From the NCBI GenBank assembly GCA_030765525.1, contig JAVCCK010000020.1, forward strand, positions 177,286 to 241,285: a stretch of 64,000 nucleotides of DNA, given 5' to 3'. Of the stretch, positions 5,110 through 52,722 are shown in pieces. Both the position numbers and the translations under genes were made by a program. How positions within the stretch are numbered: the first letter of the stretch is position 1; each line of letters begins with the position of its first letter. Origin of the DNA: Candidatus Lernaella stagnicola. Its GTDB lineage: Bacteria > Lernaellota > Lernaellaia > Lernaellales > Lernaellaceae. The notes under the pieces were generated by a model. The model was not told the origin of the DNA. It saw nothing but the letters and a program-made list of their open reading frames with translations, and did no database searches.

Positions 5110-6128
5110 AAGGACAGTTGCGCCGCATAGCGGCAGGCGTGGTCGGCGGCCTGGGAATGGGCCGCAGGATCGCGGGCTGGCTGGACTGTCACGCGGCCAT
5201 TTTGGCTTATCATCGGGTGTTGGATCCGGAGCGGCACGATGTGGAGGCCGTCGAGCCGGGAATGTTCGTGACGCGCGAGACCTTCGCGGCGCACGTCGAG
5301 TTATTGCAGCAGCGCTTTCGCGTGGTGTCGTTGTCGGATTTGGTGCGGAAGCATTTGACCGGCGAGCCGGTCGAGTCGGGTACCGTGGCTGTTACGTTTG
5401 ACGACGCGTGGCTGGACACCTACGAAGTGGCCCACCCCTTGCTGCGAGCGGCGGGCTTGCCTGCTACCGTGTTTGTGCCCACGGCGTTGGTGGACGACGG
5501 GCACCGGTTTTGGTTTTCGCACGCGGCGGCGGCGACGAAGAACCTCTGGGAAATGCGCGATAGCTTAGCGGCCGCGTTTCCAGAGGAGAATGTGCCGGCG
5601 ACGGCCGCCTTTCTTGTAGACCTCCTGGTGAGCAATCCACCGCGCACGGAGTACTTCCAGGCCATCTTGGGTGAGTTGAAGGAACTGTCGGACGCGCAAC
5701 GTACCGAGGTGATCACCTTCATCGAGGCCGTTACGGAAAAGAAGATCGAATTGCCTCCGGAGTTGGCGAGTTGGGAGCAACTGCGGCAAATGCATGCGGA
5801 GGGCTGGGAAATCGGCAGCCACACGGTCGGGCACCACATCCTCACGCAACTGAGCGCGGCGGAAGTGAAACACGAATTGGACGGAAGCAAGCGCGTGATC
5901 GAGCGCGAAATCGGCGAATCGCCGACCAACTTTTGCTACCCAAACGGCAATTACGATGAGCACACGAAGCGGGCCGTGCAGCGGGCCGGTTACGCGTGCG
6001 CGGTGACGACCGAAGCCGGTTTCGCCGACCCGCCAGCGGATTTGTTCGCCTTGCCGCGCCTGGGCGTCCACCAAGGCGTCGCGGCGACGGCCAACGGTCT
6101 GGAATTGTTGCTGTCGGGACTGGGGTAG
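5100..6128 (+). CDS. Polysaccharide deacetylase (CE4 family)
   Basis: VAVTFDDAWLDTYE...ATVFVPT (TFDD motif), GSHTVGHH metal-binding His motif; 10-nt overlap with upstream gene. Confidence 0.7.
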   Translation: MGVKGQLRRIAAGVVGGLGMGRRIAGWLDCHAAILAYHRVLDPERHDVEAVEPGMFVTRETFAAHVELLQQRFRVVSLSDLVRKHLTGEPVESGTVAVTFDDAWLDTYEVAHPLLRAAGLPATVFVPTALVDDGHRFWFSHAAAATKNLWEMRDSLAAAFPEENVPATAAFLVDLLVSNPPRTEYFQAILGELKELSDAQRTEVITFIEAVTEKKIELPPELASWEQLRQMHAEGWEIGSHTVGHHILTQLSAAEVKHELDGSKRVIEREIGESPTNFCYPNGNYDEHTKRAVQRAGYACAVTTEAGFADPPADLFALPRLGVHQGVAATANGLELLLSGLG

Positions 6129-6131
6129 GGG

Positions 6132-7496
6132 CTAACCTACGAGCTTGTTCAGATACACCAAGCTCGTCTTGATTCCCTTCACGAAATTATCGAGATCGAA
6201 ATGCTCGTTGGGCGCGTGGGCCTGTTCCGAGTTGAGCCCGAAGCCCATCAGCACCACCGGCTTGGTCATCATACGCGCCATGTCGGCGATGATCGGGATC
6301 GAACCGCCTTCGCGGGTGAAGACGCACTCGGCTCCGTACACTTCTTCCATTGCCTCGGCGGCCTTCCGCAGGGCCGGTTCAGTAAGCGGGCACAGGAATG
6401 GGAAGCCGCCGTGCATTTCGATGATCTTTACTTTCACCGATGGCGGCGTGTGTTTCTCGACGTGGCGGCGGAACAGTTCGCCGATCTTATGCGGATCCTG
6501 ATTCGGTACCAGGCGCATACTGACCTTGAGGCCGGCTTTGGCGGGCAGGACCGTCTTGGCGCCTTCTCCTTGGAAGCCACCCCAGATGCCGTTGGCGTCC
6601 AAGGTCGGGCGTGCGCCGAGGCGTTCCGCGGTCGTGAAGCCTGCTTCGCCGACTAACGCCGGTGCGGACGTTTCTTCGAGTACCCGTTCGTCACCGTTTG
6701 GCAGTTTGGCGTAGTTCGCTTGTTCTTCTTCGGTCACGTCGATGACATCGTCGTAGAAGCCCTCGATTGTGATGTGATGATCATCGTCTTTCATCGACGT
6801 GAGCAGCTTGGCCAATTCGTTGAGGGGATTGGCCACCGCGCCGCCGTAGCTGCCGGAGTGCAGATCGCCGTCGGCGGCTTCCATTTCCAACTGGAAATAG
6901 GCGAGTCCGCGCAGCCCGTAACTGATGGACGGCTGGCCCTTGGCAATCATGCTCGAATCGGAAACGAGGATGACATCGCAATCAAGCAGGTCTTTGTTAT
7001 CAGGCAACCACTCGGTGAGCGCAGGGCTGCCGACTTCTTCCTCGCCTTCGAAGAGTATTTTGATATTGACGGGCAATTCGCCGCGTAGTTTGAGTAGAGT
7101 TTCGAGTGCTTTGACGTGGGTGAATAGCTGGCCCTTGTCGTCGGTTGTGCCGCGCGCCCAGATGATACCGTCTTTGATGACCGGTTCGAACGGCGGGCTG
7201 TCCCAGAGTTCGAGAGGGTCGACCGGCTGCACGTCGTAATGCCCGTAGATGAGTACAGTCGGGGCGCCGGCGGGTCCTTCGTGGTGTGCGTACACGAGCG
7301 GCTTGCCGGTCGTGGGCAATACCTGCACGTTATTCAGGCCGATGCTTTTGAGGTGGTCGGCCAGCCACTGGGCGGTTTGCCGGCAGGCGTCTTCCTTGTC
7401 GGCGTCGGAGCTGATGCTTTCGAATCGCAAGAGTTCCTGGAGTTCTACTAGATAGGTCTCGAGGTTTTCGTCGACGTGTTTAAACAGGGTTTCCAT
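6132..7496 (-). CDS. M20-family metallopeptidase (dipeptidase/ArgE/DapE-like)
   Basis: YGHYDVQPVD...WARGTTDDKGQ...FEGEEEVGS motifs characteristic of M20 peptidases. Confidence 0.75.
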   Translation of the reverse strand: METLFKHVDENLETYLVELQELLRFESISSDADKEDACRQTAQWLADHLKSIGLNNVQVLPTTGKPLVYAHHEGPAGAPTVLIYGHYDVQPVDPLELWDSPPFEPVIKDGIIWARGTTDDKGQLFTHVKALETLLKLRGELPVNIKILFEGEEEVGSPALTEWLPDNKDLLDCDVILVSDSSMIAKGQPSISYGLRGLAYFQLEMEAADGDLHSGSYGGAVANPLNELAKLLTSMKDDDHHITIEGFYDDVIDVTEEEQANYAKLPNGDERVLEETSAPALVGEAGFTTAERLGARPTLDANGIWGGFQGEGAKTVLPAKAGLKVSMRLVPNQDPHKIGELFRRHVEKHTPPSVKVKIIEMHGGFPFLCPLTEPALRKAAEAMEEVYGAECVFTREGGSIPIIADMARMMTKPVVLMGFGLNSEQAHAPNEHFDLDNFVKGIKTSLVYLNKLVG

Positions 7497-7509
7497 GGCT
7501 CTCTCCAGA

Positions 7510-8739
7510 TCAATTAAGGGTCCACATATATTTCTTGGCGATAGCGACGTACGGCTTGGTCGAAAGCAAGTACAGCACGTAACCTGAGCCGCCGCCCATG
7601 ATAGAGCCGACGATTAAGCTGACGCCCATGGCGCTGAAGGTAATGCCGGGCACGGAGGTTGAGGCGAAATACGCCGTGAAGCCGAAGGCGATGCCAATCG
7701 CCGGCGCGAAGTAGGAATCGGCTCGCAACGGTCGGATCAAGTAGTCAATGAAACCGAAAATGAAGATGAATATCGCGCCGAGCAAGCTGATGATCAGGGG
7801 GAATTGGCGATCGTGGTACACCGCGTATTCGATATTCTCCGTCAAATCACCGCCGATTCGCGCCAACTGCATTTTGTATTCGCCGGGGCTGTCGACCCGC
7901 AGCGAGAAAAGCTTGGTCGTGTGGATCACATCAAGGTAACCGCGGCCGCGCTTACTCACGCGCCGCCGCTGGCGCTCTTGTTCGAATTTGCCCGGGAAGT
8001 TGTCGATTACGTCAAGTGTTTCCGGGGTCAGCAGGCGCATTTCGTACGTGCCGCTGAGTTTGTAGGTGCCGGCGCGTTGGACTTTCTTGGCTTCTTTTCC
8101 GGCCTTTTTCGCTTCCGCGACTTTTTCTTCCTCGTCGGCGAGCTTCTGCTGCTCGCGGTCCATTTCGGCGAAGTGCCCTTTCAAGTAAAGTGTGTACCGC
8201 GTACCGGGCAAATTGATCGTGCCGGTCCCCGCTGTGGCTTTGATCGTGCCTTCGGCGACAGGCTTTCCCCAATCGGCGGCAAAATGAACAGCCGCGCCGC
8301 AAATGAGCAACGAGACGGCGGCTCCGCCGAAGACGATGGCTTTAGCGAAGGGTTTGGTTAGCTGGCTTCGGTTCCGATAGACGGGCACGACGATGAAAAA
8401 CAATATCGTTGCGCCGCCTGCGATGAGCATGAAGACCCCATCGAGTTGAAGGCCGTCGAAGAGGCTGGCATCGTATTTCGTAACGAAATGGGAAACCAAA
8501 TACACGAGGAGCCAGGCTATGAACGGCACGATAACACTCGGCAGTTCGACGGCGGCCGCGATGCCTCGCTTAATTTTCGTGTCTTTGGCCTTTGGCGGCG
8601 TCGGGGTCGGCGGCGGAGGCTCGGGAGTCTGCGGCGGCGGATTCTCGGGAGTTTGCGGCGGCGGCGGTTGCTGAGCGCCGTTGGGTTGTTGTTTCTTCTT
8701 TTGAGAACGCTTGCCTTTTTTATCGCCCTTTTTTGCCAT
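7510..8739 (-). CDS. Hypothetical membrane protein with Lys/Pro-rich N-terminus
   Basis: 409-aa ORF; N-terminus KKGDKKGKRSQKKKQQ followed by a duplicated PPPQTPE motif; several predicted TM segments; no recognisable catalytic motif. Confidence 0.45.
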   Translation of the reverse strand: MAKKGDKKGKRSQKKKQQPNGAQQPPPPQTPENPPPQTPEPPPPTPTPPKAKDTKIKRGIAAAVELPSVIVPFIAWLLVYLVSHFVTKYDASLFDGLQLDGVFMLIAGGATILFFIVVPVYRNRSQLTKPFAKAIVFGGAAVSLLICGAAVHFAADWGKPVAEGTIKATAGTGTINLPGTRYTLYLKGHFAEMDREQQKLADEEEKVAEAKKAGKEAKKVQRAGTYKLSGTYEMRLLTPETLDVIDNFPGKFEQERQRRRVSKRGRGYLDVIHTTKLFSLRVDSPGEYKMQLARIGGDLTENIEYAVYHDRQFPLIISLLGAIFIFIFGFIDYLIRPLRADSYFAPAIGIAFGFTAYFASTSVPGITFSAMGVSLIVGSIMGGGSGYVLYLLSTKPYVAIAKKYMWTLN

Positions 8740-41746: not shown

Positions 41747-44700
41747 TTATTTCTTTTTACGCAGGAAGCGGCCGAGGATCGTGATTTCGACCGGCATCGT
41801 GAGCCGCTGGCCGATTTTGACTTCGTCGGCTGCGATCGGCGGCCGGCCCTTCGGCGCCGGAATCACCTGCAAGGTCTTGCTTTTGGCATAACGCGCCTGC
41901 ACGAATGCCTGGCCGATCAACTTGCCTTCGCCGTCGGTGGCGCAACTGGTCACGTAGCCGATGCACGCGCCTTTGTCGTTGACGATCGGGTCGTCCGTTT
42001 TCAGCGGCCGGGTTCCCTTGGCGGAGACGCCGAAACGCACGACGGCGATTCCGCGCTTTTCCTTTTTCGCTAGGTAGGCCTTTTTGCCCACGAAAAACGG
42101 CTTGTGCAGTTTGACGAAACCGCCGAATCCGGCTTCGTTGGGCACGAGGTTGTGCGGGCCGGCCAGTTCGTGTCCGTACAGCGGCAAACCGGCTTCCATG
42201 CGCAGGCTGTCCCGCGCGCCGAGGCCGATCGGCATCACGCCGTGCTCCTTTCCGGCTTCCATGATCGCTTCCCAAAGCTGCGGCGCCTTGTCGGGATGCA
42301 CGAAAATCTCGAAGCAAGTCGGCTCGCCGGTATAACCCGTGCCGGAGATGATCGCGTCGAGGCCGTCCAACGTGGCGTACATGGTGCAGTTGTGCCCCAA
42401 GGCTTTCAGCGCCGGTTTGTCCGCTTCGGCCGCGAGTGCCAGCAAGATGTCGCGCGAACGCGGGCCTTGCAGCGCCAGGTCGACACGACGCTCGTCGCCC
42501 CATTGCGGGTCTTTCAGATTGCGCAGCACGCAAGGCTCGGGGAAGCAGCGTTGCGGCACCTGCGGATCGAGCAGCACCCGCCCTTCGTTGACCGCAACCA
42601 GCCACGCCCAATCCTTGTCTTCGTTGGCGGCGTTGACGACCAGCAGAATGCGGTCGGCCTGAACGTGGTAGACGAGCAGATCATCGAGCAAATCGCCGTC
42701 GTGATCGAACAGGTGCGAGTACTGCGCCTCGCCGACCTCCAAACCGCCGGCGTGATTGGCGCAAACCAGATCGACGAACTCCATCGCCCGCGGGCCGCTG
42801 GCCTCGAACACGCCCATGTGGCTGACGTCGAACAGCCCCGCCGCTTGCCGCACGGCGTTGTGTTCCTCGATGGTCGAGGTGTAACGCACCGGCATTTCGT
42901 ATCCGCCGAAGGGCACCATCACGCCGCCGAGTTTCTGGTGAATCTCAAACAGCGTGGTGCGCTTGTCTTCGCCTTCCGGCGCATTCCAGGAGAAGCGCGG
43001 CAAGTCCGGCTGGGGCAGGCGGTCGGCCAGCGCGCTTTGGCCCACAAAGAAAGGCCGCGCGACGTCCACATTCAACTCGGCGGCGTCTTTCCCGGCGAGG
43101 CTTTTATCGGTTTTCGGCAACAGGCTCAGCCAATCCTGAGCGAAGGTGCAATCCAACGGCATTTCGTCGATCACCACCGCGCCGGTGACTTTCGCCGAAG
43201 CATCCTGCGGATCGATCATCGTGAAGCCGTCGGCAAGACCGCGCAACCAGGCCAACAGGGGATCGGCGTTGTCCGGGTTTACTTTCACCACGAAACCGTT
43301 GCGGCGCGGATCATCGCTGAGCGGCAGCCGGGCCAGCGCGATTTCGTCCAGCACGTTGCCTTGATCGTCGAGCGCCAGGCTCGTCACCTTTTCGCCGTCG
43401 GCCAGGTGCGAAGGATCGGTGACCAGCGCCTCGCGCAGGAATTCGTCGGCTTCGGCGCCCGTCAACTTGACGATCACGGCCTCTTCGGAGTGGTCCAAAT
43501 ACGGATGGTGCGGATAGCCCGAAAGCGCCGGCGCATCCACACGCCAGGTGCGGGTTAACGCGTCAACTTCCTCGGACACTTCGCGCAGCACCTTCAAGTC
43601 GATCTTGCCGCGCGGCAGCACGCGGGTCATGCCGTCGTAATGCACGGGATGAATCGCGGTGATCACCCGGTGGATCAAGCGCGCGATGTGCTTGACGTCT
43701 TCCGCGTCGGCCCCGCGCTGCGTCACCCACGGCGTGCCGAGGCGCAGGCCCGTGGCCAGCGGCGTGGCGGTGTCGCCGGGGATGGTGTTTTTGTTGAGGA
43801 TGATGCCCGCCAGTTCCAGAATGTGCGCGGCCGGCTCGCCGTAAAGCAGCGGCGTTCCCCGGGGGGTGAGCGGTTTGAGGTCGATCAGCAGCTTGTGCGT
43901 ATCGGTGCCGCCGTAGGCGAGGCGAACGCCCAGCCGCTGGAATTCTTCGGCCATCACTTTCGCGTGGCCGGCGATGCGGTGCATGAGCTGCCGGAACGAG
44001 TCGGTCTGCGCCAGCTTGAACGCCACGGCCAGCGCGGCAATCGTGTTCATATGCGGGCCGCCTTGCTCGCCCGGGAAGACGCTGTTGTGGATCTTCGCCG
44101 CCAGCTTGCCGCTGCTGGTGAGGATCACCGCACCGCGCGGACCCATCAAGGTCTTGTGGGTCGTGAACGTCACTACATGGGCATGGTCGATCGGGTTCGG
44201 GTAATCCCCGGCCACGGTCAGACCCGCCGGGTGGGCGATGTCGGCCATCAGGTATGCGCCCACTTCGTCGGCAATGGCGCGGAACTTGGCGAAATCCGGC
44301 GCCCAGGGGTAGGACGTGTACCCGGCGATGATCATCTTCGGCCGATGTTCCTTGGCCAGCCTCATCACTTCGTCGTAATCGATCAGTTCGGTTTGCGGGT
44401 CCACGCCGTAGGGCACGATGTGGTAGTGCTTGCCGGTCATGTGGAAGGGGCTGCCGTGCGAGAGGTGCCCGCCCGCCATGAGGTCCAGGGCCATGACGGT
44501 GCCGCCGCGGGGCACCAGGGCTTCGTACACGGCGATGTTGGCCGGGGCGCCCGAGAGGGGCTGCACGTTGGCGTGGATTTTCGACGCCGGTGTCTTTTCG
44601 GTGGCGAAGCACTCGGCGGCGCGGGTGCGGCAGATCGATTCCACGAGGTTCACGTACGCGTTGCCCTTGTAAAAGCGGCGGTCGGCGTAGCGGCGGTAGC

Positions 44701-44962
44701 GCACGAGCCGGGTGGCGATGTCGGACAGGTTTTCCATCGGCATCAGCGTGTTTTCGCGCGCCGGGTAGCCTTCCGCGTAGAGGTTCGTGAAACACGTGTC
44801 GAGCATCCGGCGCACCGGCCAGGCGCAAATACTTTCCGAGGGAATCAGCACGATGTGCCGCGCCTGCCGCTCTTCCTCCCAGTGGAGCAGTTCGTTCATC
44901 AGGGAGTCGGCGTTCTGGATGTTTTCGTCGAAAAGGAAATCGATGATCGCTTCGTCGGACAT
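41747..44962 (-). CDS. Fusion protein: serine hydroxymethyltransferase (GlyA-like) N-terminal domain + glycine cleavage T-protein (aminomethyltransferase) C-terminal domain
   Basis: Single 1071-codon ORF. N-terminal AEGYP...ANVQPLSGAPAN...GGHLSHG...VVTFTTHKTLMGPRG (SHMT PLP-lysine motif). C-terminal FGGYEMPVRY...GLFDVSHMG...TGYTGE...GLGARDSLRMEAGLPLYG (GcvT). GAGGT RBS before ATG 44962. Confidence 0.8.
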   Translation of the reverse strand: MSDEAIIDFLFDENIQNADSLMNELLHWEEERQARHIVLIPSESICAWPVRRMLDTCFTNLYAEGYPARENTLMPMENLSDIATRLVRYRRYADRRFYKGNAYVNLVESICRTRAAECFATEKTPASKIHANVQPLSGAPANIAVYEALVPRGGTVMALDLMAGGHLSHGSPFHMTGKHYHIVPYGVDPQTELIDYDEVMRLAKEHRPKMIIAGYTSYPWAPDFAKFRAIADEVGAYLMADIAHPAGLTVAGDYPNPIDHAHVVTFTTHKTLMGPRGAVILTSSGKLAAKIHNSVFPGEQGGPHMNTIAALAVAFKLAQTDSFRQLMHRIAGHAKVMAEEFQRLGVRLAYGGTDTHKLLIDLKPLTPRGTPLLYGEPAAHILELAGIILNKNTIPGDTATPLATGLRLGTPWVTQRGADAEDVKHIARLIHRVITAIHPVHYDGMTRVLPRGKIDLKVLREVSEEVDALTRTWRVDAPALSGYPHHPYLDHSEEAVIVKLTGAEADEFLREALVTDPSHLADGEKVTSLALDDQGNVLDEIALARLPLSDDPRRNGFVVKVNPDNADPLLAWLRGLADGFTMIDPQDASAKVTGAVVIDEMPLDCTFAQDWLSLLPKTDKSLAGKDAAELNVDVARPFFVGQSALADRLPQPDLPRFSWNAPEGEDKRTTLFEIHQKLGGVMVPFGGYEMPVRYTSTIEEHNAVRQAAGLFDVSHMGVFEASGPRAMEFVDLVCANHAGGLEVGEAQYSHLFDHDGDLLDDLLVYHVQADRILLVVNAANEDKDWAWLVAVNEGRVLLDPQVPQRCFPEPCVLRNLKDPQWGDERRVDLALQGPRSRDILLALAAEADKPALKALGHNCTMYATLDGLDAIISGTGYTGEPTCFEIFVHPDKAPQLWEAIMEAGKEHGVMPIGLGARDSLRMEAGLPLYGHELAGPHNLVPNEAGFGGFVKLHKPFFVGKKAYLAKKEKRGIAVVRFGVSAKGTRPLKTDDPIVNDKGACIGYVTSCATDGEGKLIGQAFVQARYAKSKTLQVIPAPKGRPPIAADEVKIGQRLTMPVEITILGRFLRKKK

Positions 44963-45302
44963 GTCGTTACCTCAAGCGAGTTTCGAAACAGTTGAAGTCA
45001 CCGTTTCTTAACACCGCGCTAAATGAAAGTAAACGCCGCCCGCGCGTCGCGACCGGCAAACGCTGGTGAAAAGCGAATTCGCACCCCGTAATCGCCGACC
45101 GCGTCCCCTTCTACGGCCGCCGCGGCATTCAGGTCCCGGCCCTAGTGCCGCAAAACAACTGAAAAGGCGGGACGGGCGCCGAGACCGGTTATTTGTAGGG
45201 GAAAAGAGTTAACACCGAGGACTAATGCTTTTAGCAGCCTAAGACCATCTTTCCACATCGCAAACCGGTTCCAGAAAGGTCGCTGCTACTATGCGCTACT
45301 CA

Positions 45303-46421
45303 CTACGTGACAGATTTGGCGGAAGACCACTCATAATAAACTTTTAGATTATTCATAAAGCTCCAATCAAGCCAGCCTTCTTTCTGCATTCGACCGACAA
45401 CGATCCCCGGCGCGATACCAATTCCCGTTGCGAAACTGCGCACATCGTCTTTCGATCGGAATTGTCTTGCGGCCAACCCGTGTAGACGGTTTGCATCGGC
45501 AGGTTTTATCAGGATATTACTTGCGTAAACGTCTGCTTGTCTTTCAGATTCGTTATCCAGGCCACCCAAGCCCTCGATAAATAATAGTTTTTTGCCGTGT
45601 AGCAGCAGGTGGGCGGCTTCGTGGAAAAAGGTGAACCAAACGTGATCGTTCGAGTTGTAGCGCAAACTGAGCAAGAGCATGGCTTTTGCAGGCGCCAACC
45701 ATCGTGTTGCCCCGCTTGCCGGGCATCCCGGGGGCGTTTCCAAGAACACAACCGCCACGCCGCATGCTGCGCATACCTCGGTCATTCGAACAATGAAAAC
45801 GTCGGGATCTGACTCGTTTGTCAGGGCGCGTAGTTCACGCAGGGCATCCCTAAACGCTTGTTTATTGAACGGTTCGCAGGGGATATTGTTTGCCCTGCGT
45901 TCACCTTCCCGAAGCCAAGCCGCCACTGCGCCCACGTTCTTTTGAAATTTATCAGACGCCCGAAATGCGGCAACGGGTGTTTGATATTGTTCACGCCAAG
46001 CGTCTACGGACGCGACACAAAAAAATCTCAGAGAATCCAGCACCTGTTCGCCTTTTTCGCGGATATTGCGGATCAGTCCCAACTTTCGCATCCACGGCAG
46101 CGGCAATTCCTTTAGCCACCCGGCGTCTTTTCTTGCAGCCTCAATCGCATCTTTTCGCGCCAGCCCAGCTTGGTATTGAGCGTCGCGAACCAACCAAAAA
46201 TTGGGAGTTGATCCCAGAACCCTCGAAAGACGTTCGGCAATCTGGGTCGAAATCGGCACGCGGCCTTTCACTAGATCGTTCACAAAAGGGGCGGTAACGT
46301 CCATTCGCTTTGCAAGATCAGTTTGCCTCCACCCTAGCTCTTCGAGCAACTCATCAATCGTATCTCCGGGTGGAGAAATCCAATCGGGATTGAATTGTTC
46401 ATGGTTAGTCATGGTAGTCAC
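45303..46421 (-). CDS. higA: HigA-like antitoxin: XRE-type HTH N-terminus fused to ImmA/IrrE-like HExxH metallopeptidase domain
   Basis: N-terminus PPGDTIDELLEELGWRQTDLAKRM...STPNFWL matches HigA HTH; C-terminal FFHEAAHLLLH motif; region has lower GC. Confidence 0.65.
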   Translation of the reverse strand: MTTMTNHEQFNPDWISPPGDTIDELLEELGWRQTDLAKRMDVTAPFVNDLVKGRVPISTQIAERLSRVLGSTPNFWLVRDAQYQAGLARKDAIEAARKDAGWLKELPLPWMRKLGLIRNIREKGEQVLDSLRFFCVASVDAWREQYQTPVAAFRASDKFQKNVGAVAAWLREGERRANNIPCEPFNKQAFRDALRELRALTNESDPDVFIVRMTEVCAACGVAVVFLETPPGCPASGATRWLAPAKAMLLLSLRYNSNDHVWFTFFHEAAHLLLHGKKLLFIEGLGGLDNESERQADVYASNILIKPADANRLHGLAARQFRSKDDVRSFATGIGIAPGIVVGRMQKEGWLDWSFMNNLKVYYEWSSAKSVT

Positions 46422-46734
46422 CTATAAAAATGATACAAACTGCCGTGACGCGATTCCAGTCGATGCCGCCGTCGTCTTTTTCTGGGATCGGTTCATGAGC
46501 CGGTTCGAATACGAGCCGATGCCCTCCGTGAAGATTCATCGAAAACTGGCCCACTCTATCGCCTTTTAAGGCGTGTGGCCGACCGGCGATCAATTCTGTA
46601 ACATTATGGGCTGCTCTAATATCTGCCAAACGGGCGCGCAACTTCTTGAAACCGGGACCGCCGAGCTTCTTTTTGGCGCCTCTCTTATCAGCGCAGATTT
46701 TCTCCACGTCCCGTGTGCTGTAAAGAATATCCAT
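46405..46734 (-). CDS. higB: HigB-like RelE/ParE-superfamily toxin
   Basis: ALKGDRVGQFSMNL...RLVF...IGDYHD matches the HigB signature (LKGDR.G..S....R..F....DYH); toxin-first order; 17-nt overlap with the antitoxin gene. Confidence 0.65.
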   Translation of the reverse strand: MDILYSTRDVEKICADKRGAKKKLGGPGFKKLRARLADIRAAHNVTELIAGRPHALKGDRVGQFSMNLHGGHRLVFEPAHEPIPEKDDGGIDWNRVTAVCIIFIGDYHD

Positions 46735-47260
46735 CTAGCCCTCATTTGTCAAGAACTATTCATCTAAATGGCTAATCATTTTTATGTTTCGTCGTCCAGA
46801 GTTTCGACCGAAGCGTCCATCTCCAACCAGAACTCCCGGGCGGATTACTCCCACTCGGCCCAAAGCGCACATAAAAAACTTCGTCGAAAGAGACTTTAAT
46901 TCTGGATTCCCGGCTGCGCGGAAACGACGATGATAGGCAAAACATACGTGGTGTCTCGTCGAACGATAAGGATTATGCTGTCCTTGCCTTATCGACGCAA
47001 GTCAGCGTCATGGCCGATTGAAAAAATACGTATACGCCTTTCATTTCGAGGGCGTGACGACCGCAACGACCGTAGCCGAAAATCTTCGCGTCGCTCGAGC
47101 ATTTCATATAGAGTAAAAAAACGATCGAGCGCGCCACCACATTCCTCGAACGTGTCCGATATTGGTCGCAAGACAAAGGCCGAATGTGGTAGAACCGCTC
47201 AAGAAGGCGGCCCGCTTGGCCGAAAGCTTCATTGAATTCACTTTTTAGAAGAGGGAAGAG

Positions 47261-47578
47261 ATGGGTATGTGGAAGTACACCTTGCTGCTTTGTGTTTCGC
47301 TCGTTTTGGCCCTGAGCATGTTCGCCGCGTGCGGCGATGACGATGACGACGACGACGGCGGCGGTGGCGGCTATACGTGCGCCGATGCGTGCAGCGTAAT
47401 TTATGACGACTGCGGCGCGGTTCTGGCCGTTGACGGCTACACGTTGTCCGAAGCGGAATGTGTCGAGGGCTGCAACGACGAGGGCGGCATCGGCAGTTGT
47501 GAAACGGCTTGTCTGGACACCTATGCCGAAGACGAAGACTGCGACGCGTTCGCCGATTGCGCGTACAACTGCTTCTAG
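47261..47578 (+). CDS. Small acidic Cys-rich secreted lipoprotein
   Basis: Signal peptide with lipobox (MFAACG), DDDDDDDGGGGG linker, then ~80 aa with 10 Cys and high Asp/Glu. Confidence 0.55.
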   Translation: MGMWKYTLLLCVSLVLALSMFAACGDDDDDDDGGGGGYTCADACSVIYDDCGAVLAVDGYTLSEAECVEGCNDEGGIGSCETACLDTYAEDEDCDAFADCAYNCF

Positions 47579-47657
47579 CGCGGCACGAGCCGATGGGATC
47601 GCTCGGCAGGCAAGACCGGCCGGGCGACGAAGACGATTATGCCGGGCGGTGGTCGCC

Positions 47658-47685
47658 TTGACTGCCGCCCTTCTTGCCATACAAT
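47658..47685 (+). promoter_or_regulatory. Candidate sigma70-type promoter upstream of panB
   Basis: TTGACT-N16-TACAAT at 47658-47685; about 135 nt upstream of the panB start. Confidence 0.3.
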
Positions 47686-47819
47686 ACGGCGCACTCTGCG
47701 GCCGTGTTTTCTTCCAGCGGACCGGACGTACCCGCCAGTCGGGACGGCACGGTCAAATCGCCGGGGAAAACGCCGTGACAACATTCATCCGATAACCTTT
47801 TCGACGTGAAGGAGTCGAG

Positions 47820-48662
47820 ATGTCACGCAAGAAATTCGATTTGTTTACACTGAAGAAATGCTATCAAGACGGCGAGAAAATCACCATGATCACCGCCTAC
47901 GACTTCCCGACCGCGAAACTCGTGGACGAAGGGGGCGTCGAAACCGTGCTCGTGGGCGATAGCGCCGCCAACGTTGTACTGGGCTACGACAGCACGGTGC
48001 CGGTGACGATGGACGAACTGCTCGTCCTGGTCAAAGCCGTGCGGCGCGGCCTTAAGCACGCCATGCTCATCGGCGATATGCCTTTTGGCAGCTACAACGA
48101 ATCCGACGAACAGGCCATTCGCAACGGCACGCGCTTTCTCAAAGAGGGCGGCTGCGACGCGGTCAAGCTCGAAGGCGGCGGCGTGATGGTCCCGCGCATC
48201 CGCAAAATGGTGCAGGCCGGGGTGCCCGTCGTCGGACACCTGGGTTTGACGCCGCAAACGGCGGGCATGATCGGCGGCTACCGCGTCCAGGGACGCACGG
48301 CGGAGCAGGCGGAAATCATCCTCAACGACGCCAAGGCCATCGCCGAAGCGGGCGCGTGGATGCTCGTGCTGGAACTCGTGCCCGACCGGCTCGCCAAGCT
48401 GATTACCGAGTCCATCGACATCCCGACCATCGGTATCGGCGCGGGCCCCGATTGCAGCGGGCAGGTGCTGGTGCTGCATGATATGCTTGGTATCAACGAG
48501 GGCTTCACGCCCAAATTCCTGAAGCACTACGCACAGCTTGCGCCGACGATTCGCGACGCGGTCTCGACCTACGTGCAAGAGGTCAAAAAAGGCGAGTTTC
48601 CCACGGCGGAGCACTCGTTTACGATCAAAAACGAAGAGTTGCAGAAACTATACGGCGGCTGA
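47820..48662 (+). CDS. panB: 3-methyl-2-oxobutanoate hydroxymethyltransferase
   Basis: ITMITAYDFPTAKL...VLVGDSAANVVLGYDST...IGDMPFGSY, full-length PanB pattern; GGAG RBS. Confidence 0.9.
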   Translation: MSRKKFDLFTLKKCYQDGEKITMITAYDFPTAKLVDEGGVETVLVGDSAANVVLGYDSTVPVTMDELLVLVKAVRRGLKHAMLIGDMPFGSYNESDEQAIRNGTRFLKEGGCDAVKLEGGGVMVPRIRKMVQAGVPVVGHLGLTPQTAGMIGGYRVQGRTAEQAEIILNDAKAIAEAGAWMLVLELVPDRLAKLITESIDIPTIGIGAGPDCSGQVLVLHDMLGINEGFTPKFLKHYAQLAPTIRDAVSTYVQEVKKGEFPTAEHSFTIKNEELQKLYGG

Positions 48663-48680
48663 GCCGCGGGGGAGGCGACG

Positions 48681-49370
48681 GTGGCGGTCAATTTCGTAAC
48701 GGACGTGGACGACCTGGTGGCAATCAAGCGCGTGCTGGTGAGCGTGTCGGACAAATCCGGCCTCGGTATGCTGGTGTCCCGGATGATGGAAACCTGTCCG
48801 GATATCCATTTCTACTCCACCGGCGGCACGTACGCGCGGCTGGCCGAGATTCTCGGCGACCTGGCCGCGACGCACTTGACTCAGGTGTCGGACTATACCG
48901 GTCAGCCCGAAACCCAGGGCGGTTTGGTCAAGACGCTGGATTTCAAAATCTACCTCGGCTTACTTACCGAAACCTACAACGAATACCACCGCGCTGACCG
49001 CGAGCGGACCAGCGCCGTGCCGATCGACATGGTGATCGTCAACCTCTACCCCTTCAGCCGGACCGTGGCTCGCGACGACGCGACGATCGAGATGGCGCGG
49101 GCCAACATCGATATCGGCGGCCCCTGCATGGTGCGCGCCTCCGCCAAGAATTTCCTGCGCGTCACTTCGGTCGTGAACCCCGGCGACTATGGAGTTTTGT
49201 TGGAGCAGTTGCGCACGCAGGAAGGCAAGCTCAATCTGCAACAACGTTATGACTACGCCCGCCGGGCCTTTGCCCACACCGCGGCCTACGATACGGCGAT
49301 TTCCGAATACCTGGCGGCCCACGACCCGTCGGTTGTCCCGGCCGTCTACACGCTCCACGAGCAAGACTGA
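48681..49370 (+). CDS. purH: IMP cyclohydrolase domain protein (PurH N-terminal domain as a separate ORF)
   Basis: RVLVSVSDKSGL...YSTGGTYARL...QVSDYTGQPE...MVIVNLYPF...IDIGGPCMVRASAKN matches the PurH IMPCH domain; ends with TGA 12 nt before the next ORF. Confidence 0.8.
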   Translation: MAVNFVTDVDDLVAIKRVLVSVSDKSGLGMLVSRMMETCPDIHFYSTGGTYARLAEILGDLAATHLTQVSDYTGQPETQGGLVKTLDFKIYLGLLTETYNEYHRADRERTSAVPIDMVIVNLYPFSRTVARDDATIEMARANIDIGGPCMVRASAKNFLRVTSVVNPGDYGVLLEQLRTQEGKLNLQQRYDYARRAFAHTAAYDTAISEYLAAHDPSVVPAVYTLHEQD

Positions 49371-49382
49371 GAGGAACGCGAC

Positions 49383-50636
49383 ATGGCCGACTTGAAGAAG
49401 ATGTATCGCACCATCGTCGGCGATCACTTCGCGCCGCGCATGGAAATTTCGTTTATCGATGCCGGCGGCGAGCGCACGACACTCAGTTATGAAAAGGTGA
49501 CGTGGACCATCGATGAGGAAGAAAAGGGCCTGCGTTACGGCGAGAATCCGGGACAGGAAGCCGCGCTCTACAAGCTGGTGGGCGGTAATCTTGCCATCGG
49601 CGAGGTCGAATTGATTCGGCCCGGCGCGGGCTTGGTGACCGGGGCGGACATGGTCAAATTCGGTAAGCACCCCGGCAAGATCAACCTCACCGATGCCGAC
49701 AATGCGCTGAATATCTTGCGCTTCCTCACCGAAAAGCCCGCCGCGGCGATCATGAAGCACAACAATCCGTCGGGCGTGGCTCAGGCGGAGTCCCTTGTCG
49801 AGGCGTACCTCAAAGCCGATCTGGCCGACCATGTTGCCGCCTTCGGCGGTTGCATCGCACTCAACCGCCCCGTCGACATCGACACTGCCACCGCGATTTC
49901 CGAGCGCTACGCCGAAGTCGTGATCGCGCCGGAATTCGAAGAAGGCGCCGTCGATATTCTGGCCGGGCGCAAGAACCTGCGCATCATGAAAATTGCCAAC
50001 ATCGAACGCCTGCAGAGTTACGCCGCCGAGCGCTTCCTCGACCTAAAATCCCTCGTCGACGGCGGCATCATCGCCCAGCTTTCCTACCTGCCGGTGCTTG
50101 GCCGGGACGCGCTGCAAATCGCCGAGACGACCTACAAGGGCGAGACGCATCGTGTCGAGCGTGAGCCGACCGAGGCCGAAATCAAAGACATGCTTTTCGG
50201 CTGGATCGTCGAGGCGGGCGTGACGTCCAACTCGGTGATTTACGTCAAGGACGGCGTCACCGTCGGCATCGGCACCGGCGAGCAAGACCGTGTCGGCGTG
50301 GCGCGTATCGCCCGCGACAAGGCTTACCGCAAGCTGAGCGAACGGTACGCTTTTGAACGCCACGAGCAGTCGCTTGATCTGCTGGCGGAAAAGGATCCCG
50401 ACGCCGCGGCGGCCATCGAGGCGGAAGTCACGCAGCAGCGCGGCGGCCTGCCGGGCAGCGTCATGGTTTCCGACGCCTTCTTCCCCTTCCGCGACGGCAT
50501 CGACGTCGGCCTGGGGGAGGGCGTGAAGGCGGTCATTCAGCCGGGCGGCTCGATCAAGGACTACCAATCGATTCAAGCCTGCAACGAAAACGGCGCAACG
50601 ATGGTCTTTACCGGCCAGCGCTCGTTCAGGCACTAG
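49383..50636 (+). CDS. purH: AICAR transformylase domain protein (PurH C-terminal domain as a separate ORF)
   Basis: LRYGENPGQEAALY...KHNNPSGVA...AFGGCIALN...VIAPEF...DAFFPFRDGIDV...VIQPGGSIKD...MVFTGQRSFRH matches the PurH AICARFT domain. Confidence 0.8.
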   Translation: MADLKKMYRTIVGDHFAPRMEISFIDAGGERTTLSYEKVTWTIDEEEKGLRYGENPGQEAALYKLVGGNLAIGEVELIRPGAGLVTGADMVKFGKHPGKINLTDADNALNILRFLTEKPAAAIMKHNNPSGVAQAESLVEAYLKADLADHVAAFGGCIALNRPVDIDTATAISERYAEVVIAPEFEEGAVDILAGRKNLRIMKIANIERLQSYAAERFLDLKSLVDGGIIAQLSYLPVLGRDALQIAETTYKGETHRVEREPTEAEIKDMLFGWIVEAGVTSNSVIYVKDGVTVGIGTGEQDRVGVARIARDKAYRKLSERYAFERHEQSLDLLAEKDPDAAAAIEAEVTQQRGGLPGSVMVSDAFFPFRDGIDVGLGEGVKAVIQPGGSIKDYQSIQACNENGATMVFTGQRSFRH

Positions 50637-50745
50637 CCGAAACCAAAACGCCACCAATTTGTAACGTTTGCGCGATGTGATATTGTGCAGGTCACGCCAT
50701 TGATGTGTCTTCCGCAGAGAAAAACTCGACTTAAGGAGAAGAGAT

Positions 50746-52722
50746 GTGAATGCACGTGGCTGGTTGTTCCTGATATTGGCGTCGCTGGTGTTTCTCGTCG
50801 CCTGCGGCTGCGAGGGTGATTCGTCCGGTGACGATGGAAATCGCCCGGTCGACGATGATGATGACAATAACGACAACGATGACAACAACGACAACGACGA
50901 TTCCACACCGCCATGTCCCTGTCTAATCGAAGGGAATTGTTACGGGGAGGGTGAACCCAATCCATACGAATCTTGCTTGATTTGCGATTCGACAACGAGT
51001 CCCGACGCTTGGACCCCGGCCGACGGCGCGCCGTGCGACGACGGCAACTTTTGTAACGGCGCCGACCTCTGCGCGAGCGGAACGTGCGGTGATCATGCGG
51101 GCAACCCCTGTTCCGACGACGGCCTGTGGTGCAATGGCGCCGAGTTATGCGACGAGAGCAATCACGCATGCCTGCAAGTGAGCGTGCCAAGCTGCCCCGA
51201 CGACGGCGTTTTCTGCAACGGGGCCGAGTTCTGCAACGACGACTTCGACGTTTGCGACCGCGGCGGCGACCCCTGCGCGGCCGCCGCCGAATGGTGCGAT
51301 GAGGAAAACGAGGCGTGTCTGGCGGTTTTCTGCCGCGCCACCGCTTTTGAATCAATCGAGACCTGCGGTCGAACGCTGGTGGATCTCGAAGGCCGGCCGC
51401 AAAACGTCGAAGAATTGACCACCTGGTGCGAAATTTCCGAAGCGATATTCGCCGCTAAGAACGAGCACGCTTCACCTTTCTGGAGTTGCTGGAGCGATTG
51501 CATTTTCGAAATGAATTGCAGCGCCGATTGTTTCGAGGCGTGCCTACATCCGGTCGATCCGGGCGGCGGCTGCGGCCACATCGCCCACGAGTTGTATGCC
51601 TGCGACGTTCGCTTCGAGTACCAGTTTTTGCAGCCTCAATACGTGCCGGAATTGGACGTGATCGAGACCTGTGATTGGCTCCAGGATGATCGTTATGCGT
51701 GTTTCGATGATTGCCTTTGGTCGTATCCGTGTGCCGGCGGCGGCGGACAATACAACTGGGAGCCCTATGACCTAACTTCCTGTGTGGATTGGTGTGAGCC
51801 CAAGCCGGCGGTTGTCTTTGACGGGCAAACCGGCGCTGCGGAAATTCCCCAAGGTTCCGTGGTCCAAGTGGATGACTTCCTCGTTTCTCTTTATTTCCGG
51901 TTCGACGGCGGTCTGCCGGAAAACGGCGACTCAACGGGGATCGCCGGCTGTTTGAATCTCGGAACCGACGCCGCGGACTCGCCGGCCGGCTGGGAGTACC
52001 GCGTCGTGCGCGACGATCAGTGGTGGGGCGAAACCTACTACCTGGTGTTCGCCATGGCGGATGCGAATTCGGGCGAAATCGTGGAATTGACGTCGGAGTG
52101 GGAAATCGAAGTCGGCGAATGGCACGCGGCGATGGCCGGTGAATTATGGGGCGATGATACGACGATCATGCGCGTGGACGGCGTGTTGGAAGCAACCGAA
52201 GACCGAGACACCCGGTTGACGATGGATGACACGCCGCTCTGGCTCGGTCGGTCGTCGGACGGCCAGGGCATTCCTTTCCACGGCGCGGTCGACGAAGTGC
52301 ACTTGGGCCACGGAATTGGTGTTATGTGGTCGGACCGCACCATTGCCTGGTGGCGGCTGGATGAAGGATTCGGCGGCCTAGTCCACGATCTGGGGGAGCA
52401 CGATTTCACGGGCCAACTTGTCGGTGGCTACGAATGGATAGAACGTCCGGCGCGACATACCCTGATTAGTTCCGCCCAGGGAAATCCGAGCGCGGAGTCG
52501 GTCGGTCGAAACGCACGAATCGCGGAAGAACTGCATTACGAAAACACCGGCGGCGCCAACGGTGGGTACTACACGGACGACTTGGACGATTTGCTCGCAT
52601 TTGACCGCAATCTCACCGACGACCCAAACGTGACTTTCTTGTTCGGCGAAGCGAATTGTTCGGGTTACACGTTCAATACGTCACACGTGAATGGAAACAT
52701 TACCTTCCATATGACCGACTGA
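50746..52722 (+). CDS. Lipoprotein with Myxococcus-type cysteine-rich repeats and a C-terminal LamG/concanavalin-like domain
   Basis: GTG start with AAGGAG RBS; lipobox (LVACGC); D/N linker; four or more repeats of C..DG.FCNGAE.C; C-terminal LamG-like region. Confidence 0.6.
   Translation: MNARGWLFLILASLVFLVACGCEGDSSGDDGNRPVDDDDDNNDNDDNNDNDDSTPPCPCLIEGNCYGEGEPNPYESCLICDSTTSPDAWTPADGAPCDDGNFCNGADLCASGTCGDHAGNPCSDDGLWCNGAELCDESNHACLQVSVPSCPDDGVFCNGAEFCNDDFDVCDRGGDPCAAAAEWCDEENEACLAVFCRATAFESIETCGRTLVDLEGRPQNVEELTTWCEISEAIFAAKNEHASPFWSCWSDCIFEMNCSADCFEACLHPVDPGGGCGHIAHELYACDVRFEYQFLQPQYVPELDVIETCDWLQDDRYACFDDCLWSYPCAGGGGQYNWEPYDLTSCVDWCEPKPAVVFDGQTGAAEIPQGSVVQVDDFLVSLYFRFDGGLPENGDSTGIAGCLNLGTDAADSPAGWEYRVVRDDQWWGETYYLVFAMADANSGEIVELTSEWEIEVGEWHAAMAGELWGDDTTIMRVDGVLEATEDRDTRLTMDDTPLWLGRSSDGQGIPFHGAVDEVHLGHGIGVMWSDRTIAWWRLDEGFGGLVHDLGEHDFTGQLVGGYEWIERPARHTLISSAQGNPSAESVGRNARIAEELHYENTGGANGGYYTDDLDDLLAFDRNLTDDPNVTFLFGEANCSGYTFNTSHVNGNITFHMTD

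Follow-up and report, generated by a model that had tools for sequence, protein, structure and literature searches.

The locus examined here raises a simple question. Is the purH-like sequence of Candidatus Lernaella stagnicola a bifunctional gene interrupted by an in-frame stop codon, or does it consist of two genes, each encoding one of the two PurH activities? The preliminary description of the 64-kb window (the whole stretch of DNA that was analyzed) had proposed that purH is divided into two open reading frames, one for IMP cyclohydrolase and the other for AICAR transformylase. The domain content of the two frames and their comparison with orthologues support this proposal. We consider a true two-gene purH, in which purJ encodes a free-standing cyclohydrolase and purV a free-standing 10-formyl-tetrahydrofolate-dependent formyltransferase, to be the correct reading with a probability of about 0.9.

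Organization of the purJ-purV gene pair

ORF1 (purJ) extends from position 48681 to 49370 of the forward strand and encodes a protein of 229 residues, from a GTG start codon to a TGA stop codon at 49368-49370. ORF2 (purV) follows on the same strand (49383..50636) and encodes a protein of 417 residues, between an ATG start codon and a TAG stop codon. The junction (49368..49382) is composed of the TGA and a 12-nt spacer, GAGGAACGCGAC. The coordinates and lengths initially given for the two frames, the 12-nt junction and the TGA at the end of ORF1 were all confirmed from the sequence. In the sequence, the purJ GTG is preceded, at a distance of 5 nt, by a Shine-Dalgarno-like GGAGG motif (48671..48675, forward strand). 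The spacer contains another one, GAGGA, 7 nt upstream of the purV ATG. purV has therefore its own start codon and its own ribosome-binding site.

ORF1 and ORF2 share one reading frame, a point absent from the preliminary description. Because of this common frame, a fused PurH compared with the window using tblastn aligns through the TGA as a single segment (48714-50633) that spans the purJ stop codon. The same tblastn search with fused PurH revealed no second purH-like sequence, fused or other, within the 64-kb window. A fused purH is presumably also absent from the rest of the genome.

Conservation of the split among relatives

Relatives of the two proteins have homogeneous sizes, 224-241 residues for the 120 best ORF1 relatives listed and 414-440 residues for the 120 best ORF2 relatives listed, with identities of 63-80% among those listed. 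The nearest ones come from uncultured MAGs that carry the labels Myxococcota, Lernaellota and Anaerolineae. A scan using one genome per species gave 80 loci with an ORF2-type gene. An ORF1-type gene is located directly upstream in 22 of them, from Myxococcota, Desulfobacterales and Spirochaetota. In each of these 22 pairs, purJ ends with a stop codon. It can be TAA, TAG or TGA, the gap between the genes ranges from 0 to 608 nt, and purJ and purV are in different frames in half of the pairs (11/22). In about 56 loci, from Desulfobulbales, Nitrospirota and Thermodesulfovibrionales relatives, purV stands alone, with no purJ within 4 kb.

The closest relative of the pair (L082; 80% and 74% identity) is found on a 606-kb JGI contig. 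At its junction, a TAA codon is followed by a 13-nt gap containing AAGGAG and by a GTG start codon in a different frame. In Candidatus Alcyoniella australis (L083; phylum Lernaellota), one strand carries purN-purJ-fabH, and panB-purV are encoded by the complementary strand. There, purJ and purV are on opposite strands and are separated by fabH. Thus, the orthologue comparison called for in the preliminary description gives a clear answer. The two-gene split of purH is real and is conserved across several phyla, with variable stop codons, frames and linkage, and purJ and purV are independent genes.

These observations bear on two other explanations of the in-frame TGA. The first one is that an ordinary fused purH only seems broken, through an error of sequencing or of assembly, or has recently acquired a nonsense mutation, which would make the locus a single gene or a fresh pseudogene. 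The common frame of two ORFs parted by one stop and four codons, as well as the single tblastn segment running through the junction, would be expected in such a case. However, an identical TGA junction is present in a second, separately assembled contig of 7.1 kb (L081; ENA ERZ27316158), which is 99.985% identical to positions 45681-52148 of the window, with one mismatch in 6468 nt. Moreover, every close relative listed is split. The well-placed GAGGA in the gap ahead of the purV ATG, and the fact that the conserved N-terminus of PurV begins at this ATG, also argue against an accident in a fused gene. Because the split is conserved, because junctions, stops and frames vary, and because purJ and purV in some genomes lie apart or on different strands, we reject this explanation, whose likelihood we consider negligible.

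According to the second one, the in-frame TGA is recoded or read through in a programmed manner, which would produce a PurH-like fused protein besides the two separate proteins or instead of them. The identity of the stop codon and the shared frame are compatible with this idea, and two Myxococcota relatives (L001 and L002) also have a TGA, with a same-frame gap of 3 nt. Against it, purJ and purV are in different frames at 11 of the 22 related junctions, most of the 22 have TAA or TAG, and L082 is likewise out of frame, with its TAA. In the window, open frames of at least 300 codons end most often with TGA (25 of 53). Over the whole window, no Rfam element such as SECIS was found. Finally, the five codons in question (Trp or stop, then E-E-R-D) are conserved in no relative. 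The fixed, conserved stop codon that would characterize stop-codon read-through or selenocysteine recoding is therefore missing from this set of relatives, and Rfam gave no accompanying signal in the window. Since the junctions differ among relatives, we reject programmed read-through, which appears very improbable. The same-frame TGA is an accident of the lineage and does not signal recoding. TGA is generally regarded as the leakiest stop codon, and traces of a fused product could arise by read-through in this genome.

ORF1 corresponds to a free-standing IMP cyclohydrolase domain

ORF1 matches the Pfam profile MGS as well as positions 1-67 of the profile AICARFT_IMPCHas. Two PurH equivalog models, NF002049 from NCBIfam and TIGR00355, were used to delineate the domains. 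Residues 14-222 of ORF1 correspond to positions 4-204 of NF002049, and residues 39-318 of ORF2 to positions 205-447 of the same model. Therefore, the break between the two proteins is located at the domain boundary. Where the equivalog cut-off is 402 bits, ORF1 and ORF2 score 194 and 280 bits, respectively; where it is 528 bits, they reach 188 and 248. A canonical bifunctional PurH, that is one polypeptide carrying both domains and scoring above cut-off, is not encoded at this locus.

ORF1 is similar to the N-terminal domains of PurH proteins of the PDB, with E-values from 1e-37 to 1e-24. Its AlphaFold2 (AF2) model has a pLDDT of 90.7. PurH chains rank at the top of the Foldseek search with this model, and IMP cyclohydrolase (IMPCH) domains are aligned with a TMq of 0.76 and an rmsd of about 2.2 Å. 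In the human enzyme, the catalytic residues of IMP cyclohydrolase are Lys66, Tyr104, Asp125 and Lys137 (PMC3261824). The HMMER alignment places K84, Y123, D144 and K156 of ORF1 at the positions of K66, Y104, D125 and K137 of human ATIC. These four residues are invariant in an alignment of 28 members of the PurJ family. The protein ends before the AICAR formyltransferase (AICARFT) domain, and this feature is kept in the orthologues. ORF1 has therefore the homology, the predicted fold and the catalytic residues of an IMPCH domain. As judged from these comparisons, it represents a complete, free-standing IMP cyclohydrolase domain.

PurJ proteins also have features of their own. At the site of the canonical PurH motif GGRVKTLHPKxHGGxL, ORF1-type proteins contain an invariant sequence, GGLVKTLDFKIYLGLL. 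PurJ-Leu82 is found at the position of human ATIC-Arg64. In the alignment, these invariant changes of the family adjoin the catalytic lysine, so that the handling of the substrate by PurJ could differ from that in canonical PurH. The family also has a conserved C-terminal tail, VPxxY.

Such changes raise the possibility that ORF1, although MGS-like or IMPCH-like, has diverged and acts on another substrate, IMP being then produced by a different enzyme. The invariant substitutions in the GGRVKTLHPKxHGG motif, with the loss of the Arg64 equivalent, would be consistent with this, and stand-alone IMPCH homologues with other roles are known. One example is ForH (PDB 6NKO, 216 residues), which belongs to the secondary-metabolite pathway of formycin biosynthesis. 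The name "hypothetical protein" given by NCBI to orthologues of ORF1 leaves room for such a function. PurJ and ForH have the same fold and a similar size (Foldseek TMt of about 0.8). However, PurJ is about 28% identical to ForH and far nearer to the IMPCH domains of PurH, the E-value with ForH being 7e-15, to be compared with those cited above for PurH. PurJ is also linked to purV, unlike ForH. All four catalytic residues are invariant, many genomes, belonging to several phyla, have purJ directly 5' of purV, and it adjoins purN in Ca. Alcyoniella. Finally, purH is generally absent from genomes containing purV and purJ (PMC6486802). We therefore think that a role of ORF1 on another substrate is very unlikely, and that IMP cyclohydrolase remains the best assignment.

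ORF2 corresponds to a free-standing AICAR formyltransferase domain

ORF2 matches positions 67-311 of the Pfam profile AICARFT_IMPCHas, and its residues 42-417 correspond to positions 200-511 of TIGR00355. The protein is similar to the C-terminal domains of solved PurH/ATIC structures in searches of PDB sequences. Its AF2 model has a pLDDT of 83.6, and Foldseek again places PurH chains at the top (TMq of about 0.65). The pLDDT values of the ORF1 and ORF2 models support two self-contained folds. Sequence alignments were made with 14 and with 48 sequences. In both, the LRYGENP and KHNNP motifs and the C-terminal R-x-F-x-H motif are invariant, including residues R51, Y52, K125, H126, R413, F415 and H417 of ORF2. 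The R/Y, K/H and R-x-F-x-H motifs align with those of PurH chains of the PDB, a correspondence established at the level of the motifs. Thus, ORF2 combines the homology and the predicted fold of an AICARFT domain with the motifs for AICAR contact and catalysis. On this basis, ORF2 represents a complete, free-standing AICAR formyltransferase domain.

The two proteins together have the same folds and the same catalytic residues as canonical PurH/ATIC (PDB 1G8M, 1PKX, 3ZZM, 1ZCZ and 4EHI), and the order of the genes, cyclohydrolase then formyltransferase, follows that of the domains. They differ from canonical PurH in being two polypeptides, each below the equivalog cut-off. Further differences are the Leu residue of PurJ at the Arg64 position and supplementary segments of PurV, at about residues 1-48, 64-90 and 315-351, the latter being helical. 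An N-terminal extension of ORF2 of about 40 residues had been reported in the preliminary description. We find about 38-48 residues outside the region covered by the canonical profiles. This N-terminal segment (about residues 1-48) is conserved, with the consensus DLKKxYxTIxDDHFPxRMEISF...YEKVxWxI. In the 14-sequence alignment, L4, Y8, F16, F24, K38 and W41 do not vary, and this holds for all of them but L4 in the 48-sequence alignment. For the N-terminus of PurV, the AF2 model predicts a short helix and then, at residues 19-49, beta strands.

A search of cluster representatives distinguishes PurV from its fused counterparts. Full-length matches to ORF2 in a single stretch are obtained with stand-alone proteins of 394-431 residues. 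With canonical fused PurH proteins, the match begins at about residue 45-50 of ORF2 and is composed of two stretches, the helical insert being left out. A few fused proteins display parts of the PurV-type features, namely P0260 (600 residues) and P0293 (550 residues).

The interdomain linker

In a MAFFT alignment, the C-terminus of PurJ and the N-terminus of PurV both align to the same region of fused PurH, the interdomain helix with the FPxxL/linker columns. A fission accompanied by a duplication of the linker was considered as the origin of this arrangement. A profile-profile comparison of the PurJ and PurV families revealed nothing significant (probability of 0.2%, for an unrelated match of 9 columns), and a duplicated-linker origin is therefore unsupported. 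It may also be imagined that the predicted beta-meander of PurV (residues 19-49) and the conserved tail of PurJ would re-create the interdomain contact of PurH within a non-covalent complex, with, as a minor variant, trace amounts of the fused protein made by read-through of the TGA. We regard this arrangement as unlikely.

Proposed pathway and relation to the published purJ/purV pair

According to the two-gene reading, PurV would transfer the formyl group of 10-formyl-THF to AICAR, giving FAICAR, and PurJ would cyclize FAICAR to IMP, these reactions being the final two of purine synthesis. Together, the two proteins would carry out both functions of the bifunctional PurH. We infer both enzymatic activities from the conserved domains and residues described above. 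Translation of the two genes would start at separate ribosome-binding sites, GGAGG for purJ and GAGGA for purV, and their 12-nt spacing would permit translational coupling.

Separate genes of this kind were named purJ (IMPCH) and purV (AICARFT) by Cruz et al. 2019 (Genome Biol Evol; PMC6486802) in a survey of 1,403 complete genomes. In bacteria, purV was counted 81 times and purJ 50 times. The two genes occurred together in 44 bacterial genomes and were anticorrelated with purH (PMC6486802). The pair was present in every examined genome of Desulfobacterales (8/8) and Desulfovibrionales (9/9), and in all examined Thermodesulfobacteria, Prevotellaceae and Fervidobacteriaceae (PMC6486802). Citing earlier work, the same authors noted that fusion of the two PurH domains is unnecessary for catalysis (PMC6486802). 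In our comparison, Desulfobacterales genes are 63-69% identical to ORF2 and have purJ directly upstream. Therefore, the genes of the window belong to the described purJ/purV pair. As in that pair, IMPCH and AICARFT are encoded by separate, often adjacent genes that would take the place of the fused one. This variant of purH with two genes has already been published, and the pair of the window is an ordinary representative of it.

Some differences with the published set can nevertheless be pointed out. The host lineage lies outside the complete-genome survey. The linkage observed here is to panB, whereas purD and purN were the pur genes most often linked to the pair (PMC6486802). Finally, the earlier study does not deal with sequence features. 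The N-terminal segment of PurV, its helical insert and the LVKTLDFKIY motif of PurJ are described only here. Our literature search found no later paper using both names, purV and purJ. In archaea, Brown et al. 2011 (PMC3261824) refer to these domains as PurH1 (the PurV type) and PurH2 (the PurJ type). [quoted passage not shown] In description, PurJ resembles AF1811 (PurH2), both being free-standing proteins made of the IMPCH domain. Unlike PurJ, AF1811 is archaeal and is partnered with the formate-dependent PurP.

The present data extend the purJ/purV form to further uncultured lineages, with relatives labelled Myxococcota, Lernaellota, Anaerolineae, Nitrospirota and Spirochaetota. The biological weight of this extension is small, and its main practical value concerns annotation. 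Both the PurJ and the PurV halves are missed by the curated PurH equivalog models. NCBI names of the orthologues are often inverted or empty, the formyltransferase being called "IMP cyclohydrolase" and the cyclohydrolase "hypothetical protein". Pathway reconstructions from such MAGs may wrongly report purH as missing or broken. When an in-frame stop codon appears within an alignment to a fused protein, a check of the orthologues is needed before a pseudogene or an assembly error is called.

Genomic neighbourhood

The presence of panB and of an SHMT-GcvT fusion near the pair, mentioned in the preliminary description, was verified. panB (ketopantoate hydroxymethyltransferase; Pfam Pantoate_transf, E-value 1e-112) is located at 47820..48662 on the forward strand and ends 18 nt upstream of purJ. 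The SHMT-GcvT fusion, a protein of 1071 residues, is encoded on the reverse strand (41747..44962), divergently from panB.

A scan of region 47200-50900 found no forward-strand terminator between panB, purJ and purV. The three genes would be co-transcribed as an operon in which panB is probably the first gene. In the same region, one promoter-like site was detected upstream of panB (47658-47685). It is a match to the consensus only, and since the counts of such sites are no higher than in shuffled sequence, it represents weak evidence for a promoter. A riboswitch or leader RNA (ZTP/pfl, purine or THF) upstream of the cluster was also considered and rejected after Rfam searches, which gave no match at gathering thresholds over the whole window and none at E <= 1 in region 44900-50800.

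The grouping of folate-dependent genes had first been viewed as a possible coincidence. This appears too cautious, as the cluster is found again in both of the nearest genomes that were examined. In L082, SHMT-GcvT is divergent from panB-purJ-purV. In Ca. Alcyoniella, it is divergent from panB-purV, these two genes being adjacent, with purJ beside purN instead. Because it recurs in two related genomes, the grouping is conserved in the lineage and is not a one-off. It may reflect an inherited gene order or a functional coupling, both of which fit the data. A co-regulated one-carbon module comprising SHMT-GcvT and panB-(purJ)-purV can be envisaged along the latter line, though we give it little credence. 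Outside these genomes, four Desulfobacula-type loci also have panB close to purJ, but encoded by the other strand.

Sequence features of the stand-alone and fused enzymes

ORF1 (purJ, 48681-49370, + strand), the stand-alone IMP cyclohydrolase, differs from the canonical enzyme in a conserved motif. Where PurH has GGRVKTLHPKxHGGxL, the stand-alone cyclohydrolase family carries GGLVKTLDFKIYLGLL, which is invariant in the family and corresponds to residues 80-95 of ORF1 (window about 48918-48965). Arg64 of human ATIC contacts the nucleotide phosphate. The equivalent position in ORF1 is occupied by a leucine, Leu82. The solved chain closest in sequence to ORF1 is chain DA of PDB 9ou7 (E 1.4e-37), a fused PurH of 538 aa. 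The entry is entitled ‘Methanosarcina acetivorans large (50S) subunit dimer’, and the presence of a purine enzyme there was unexpected.

Two rare fusions, P0260 (600 aa) and P0293 (550 aa), have a formyltransferase half with features of the stand-alone PurV type. The alignment of P0260 runs in a single stretch and includes the helical insert. In the N-terminal cyclohydrolase domain of this protein the STGGT, VKTL and NLYPF motifs are altered, and the domain looks degenerate. P0260 and P0293 could be re-fusions or intermediates.

Annotation of the two halves

In NCBI records, formyltransferase-only proteins resembling ORF2 (P0003, P0007, P0061 and P0070) are labelled ‘IMP cyclohydrolase’, and the actual cyclohydrolases of the ORF1 type (P0128, P0151 and P0158) are labelled ‘hypothetical protein’. 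Both ORF1 and ORF2 also score below the NCBIfam PurH equivalog cut-offs. Because of these scores and of the misleading names, automated pathway annotation could call purH missing or broken.

Genomic neighborhood

A direct linkage of panB and purV is observed in three related genomes (window 47820-50636; L082, the closest relative, 5132-7975; L083, Candidatus Alcyoniella australis, 6097-8231). The window and L082 share the arrangement panB-purJ-purV. In Ca. Alcyoniella, panB-purV is found and purJ is instead relocated beside purN. In four Desulfobacula-type loci (L016, L019, L021 and L022), panB lies near purJ on the opposite strand.

Divergent from panB in the window is a gene for a 1071-aa protein (41747-44962, - strand) in which serine hydroxymethyltransferase is joined to the folate-binding domain of aminomethyltransferase (Pfam SHMT, E 1e-117; GCV_T, E 2e-79). 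This SHMT-GcvT fusion is kept in the 80%-identity relative L082 (176-3394) and in Ca. Alcyoniella (L083, 8563 onwards). Between it and panB is a gene for a 372-aa protein (45303-46421, - strand) that begins with an HTH_3 (Xre-type) domain and also matches Peptidase_M78 (ImmA/IrrE-like) weakly. This gene is absent from the matching interval of L082 and is also carried by the second-assembly contig L081.

On either side of panB-purJ-purV are two + strand ORFs (47261-47578 and 50746-52722), each encoding a signal-peptide or lipoprotein-like N-terminus followed by Asp/Asn/Gly runs and cysteine-rich repeats. The downstream one, of 658 aa, has an additional weak Laminin_G_3 domain.
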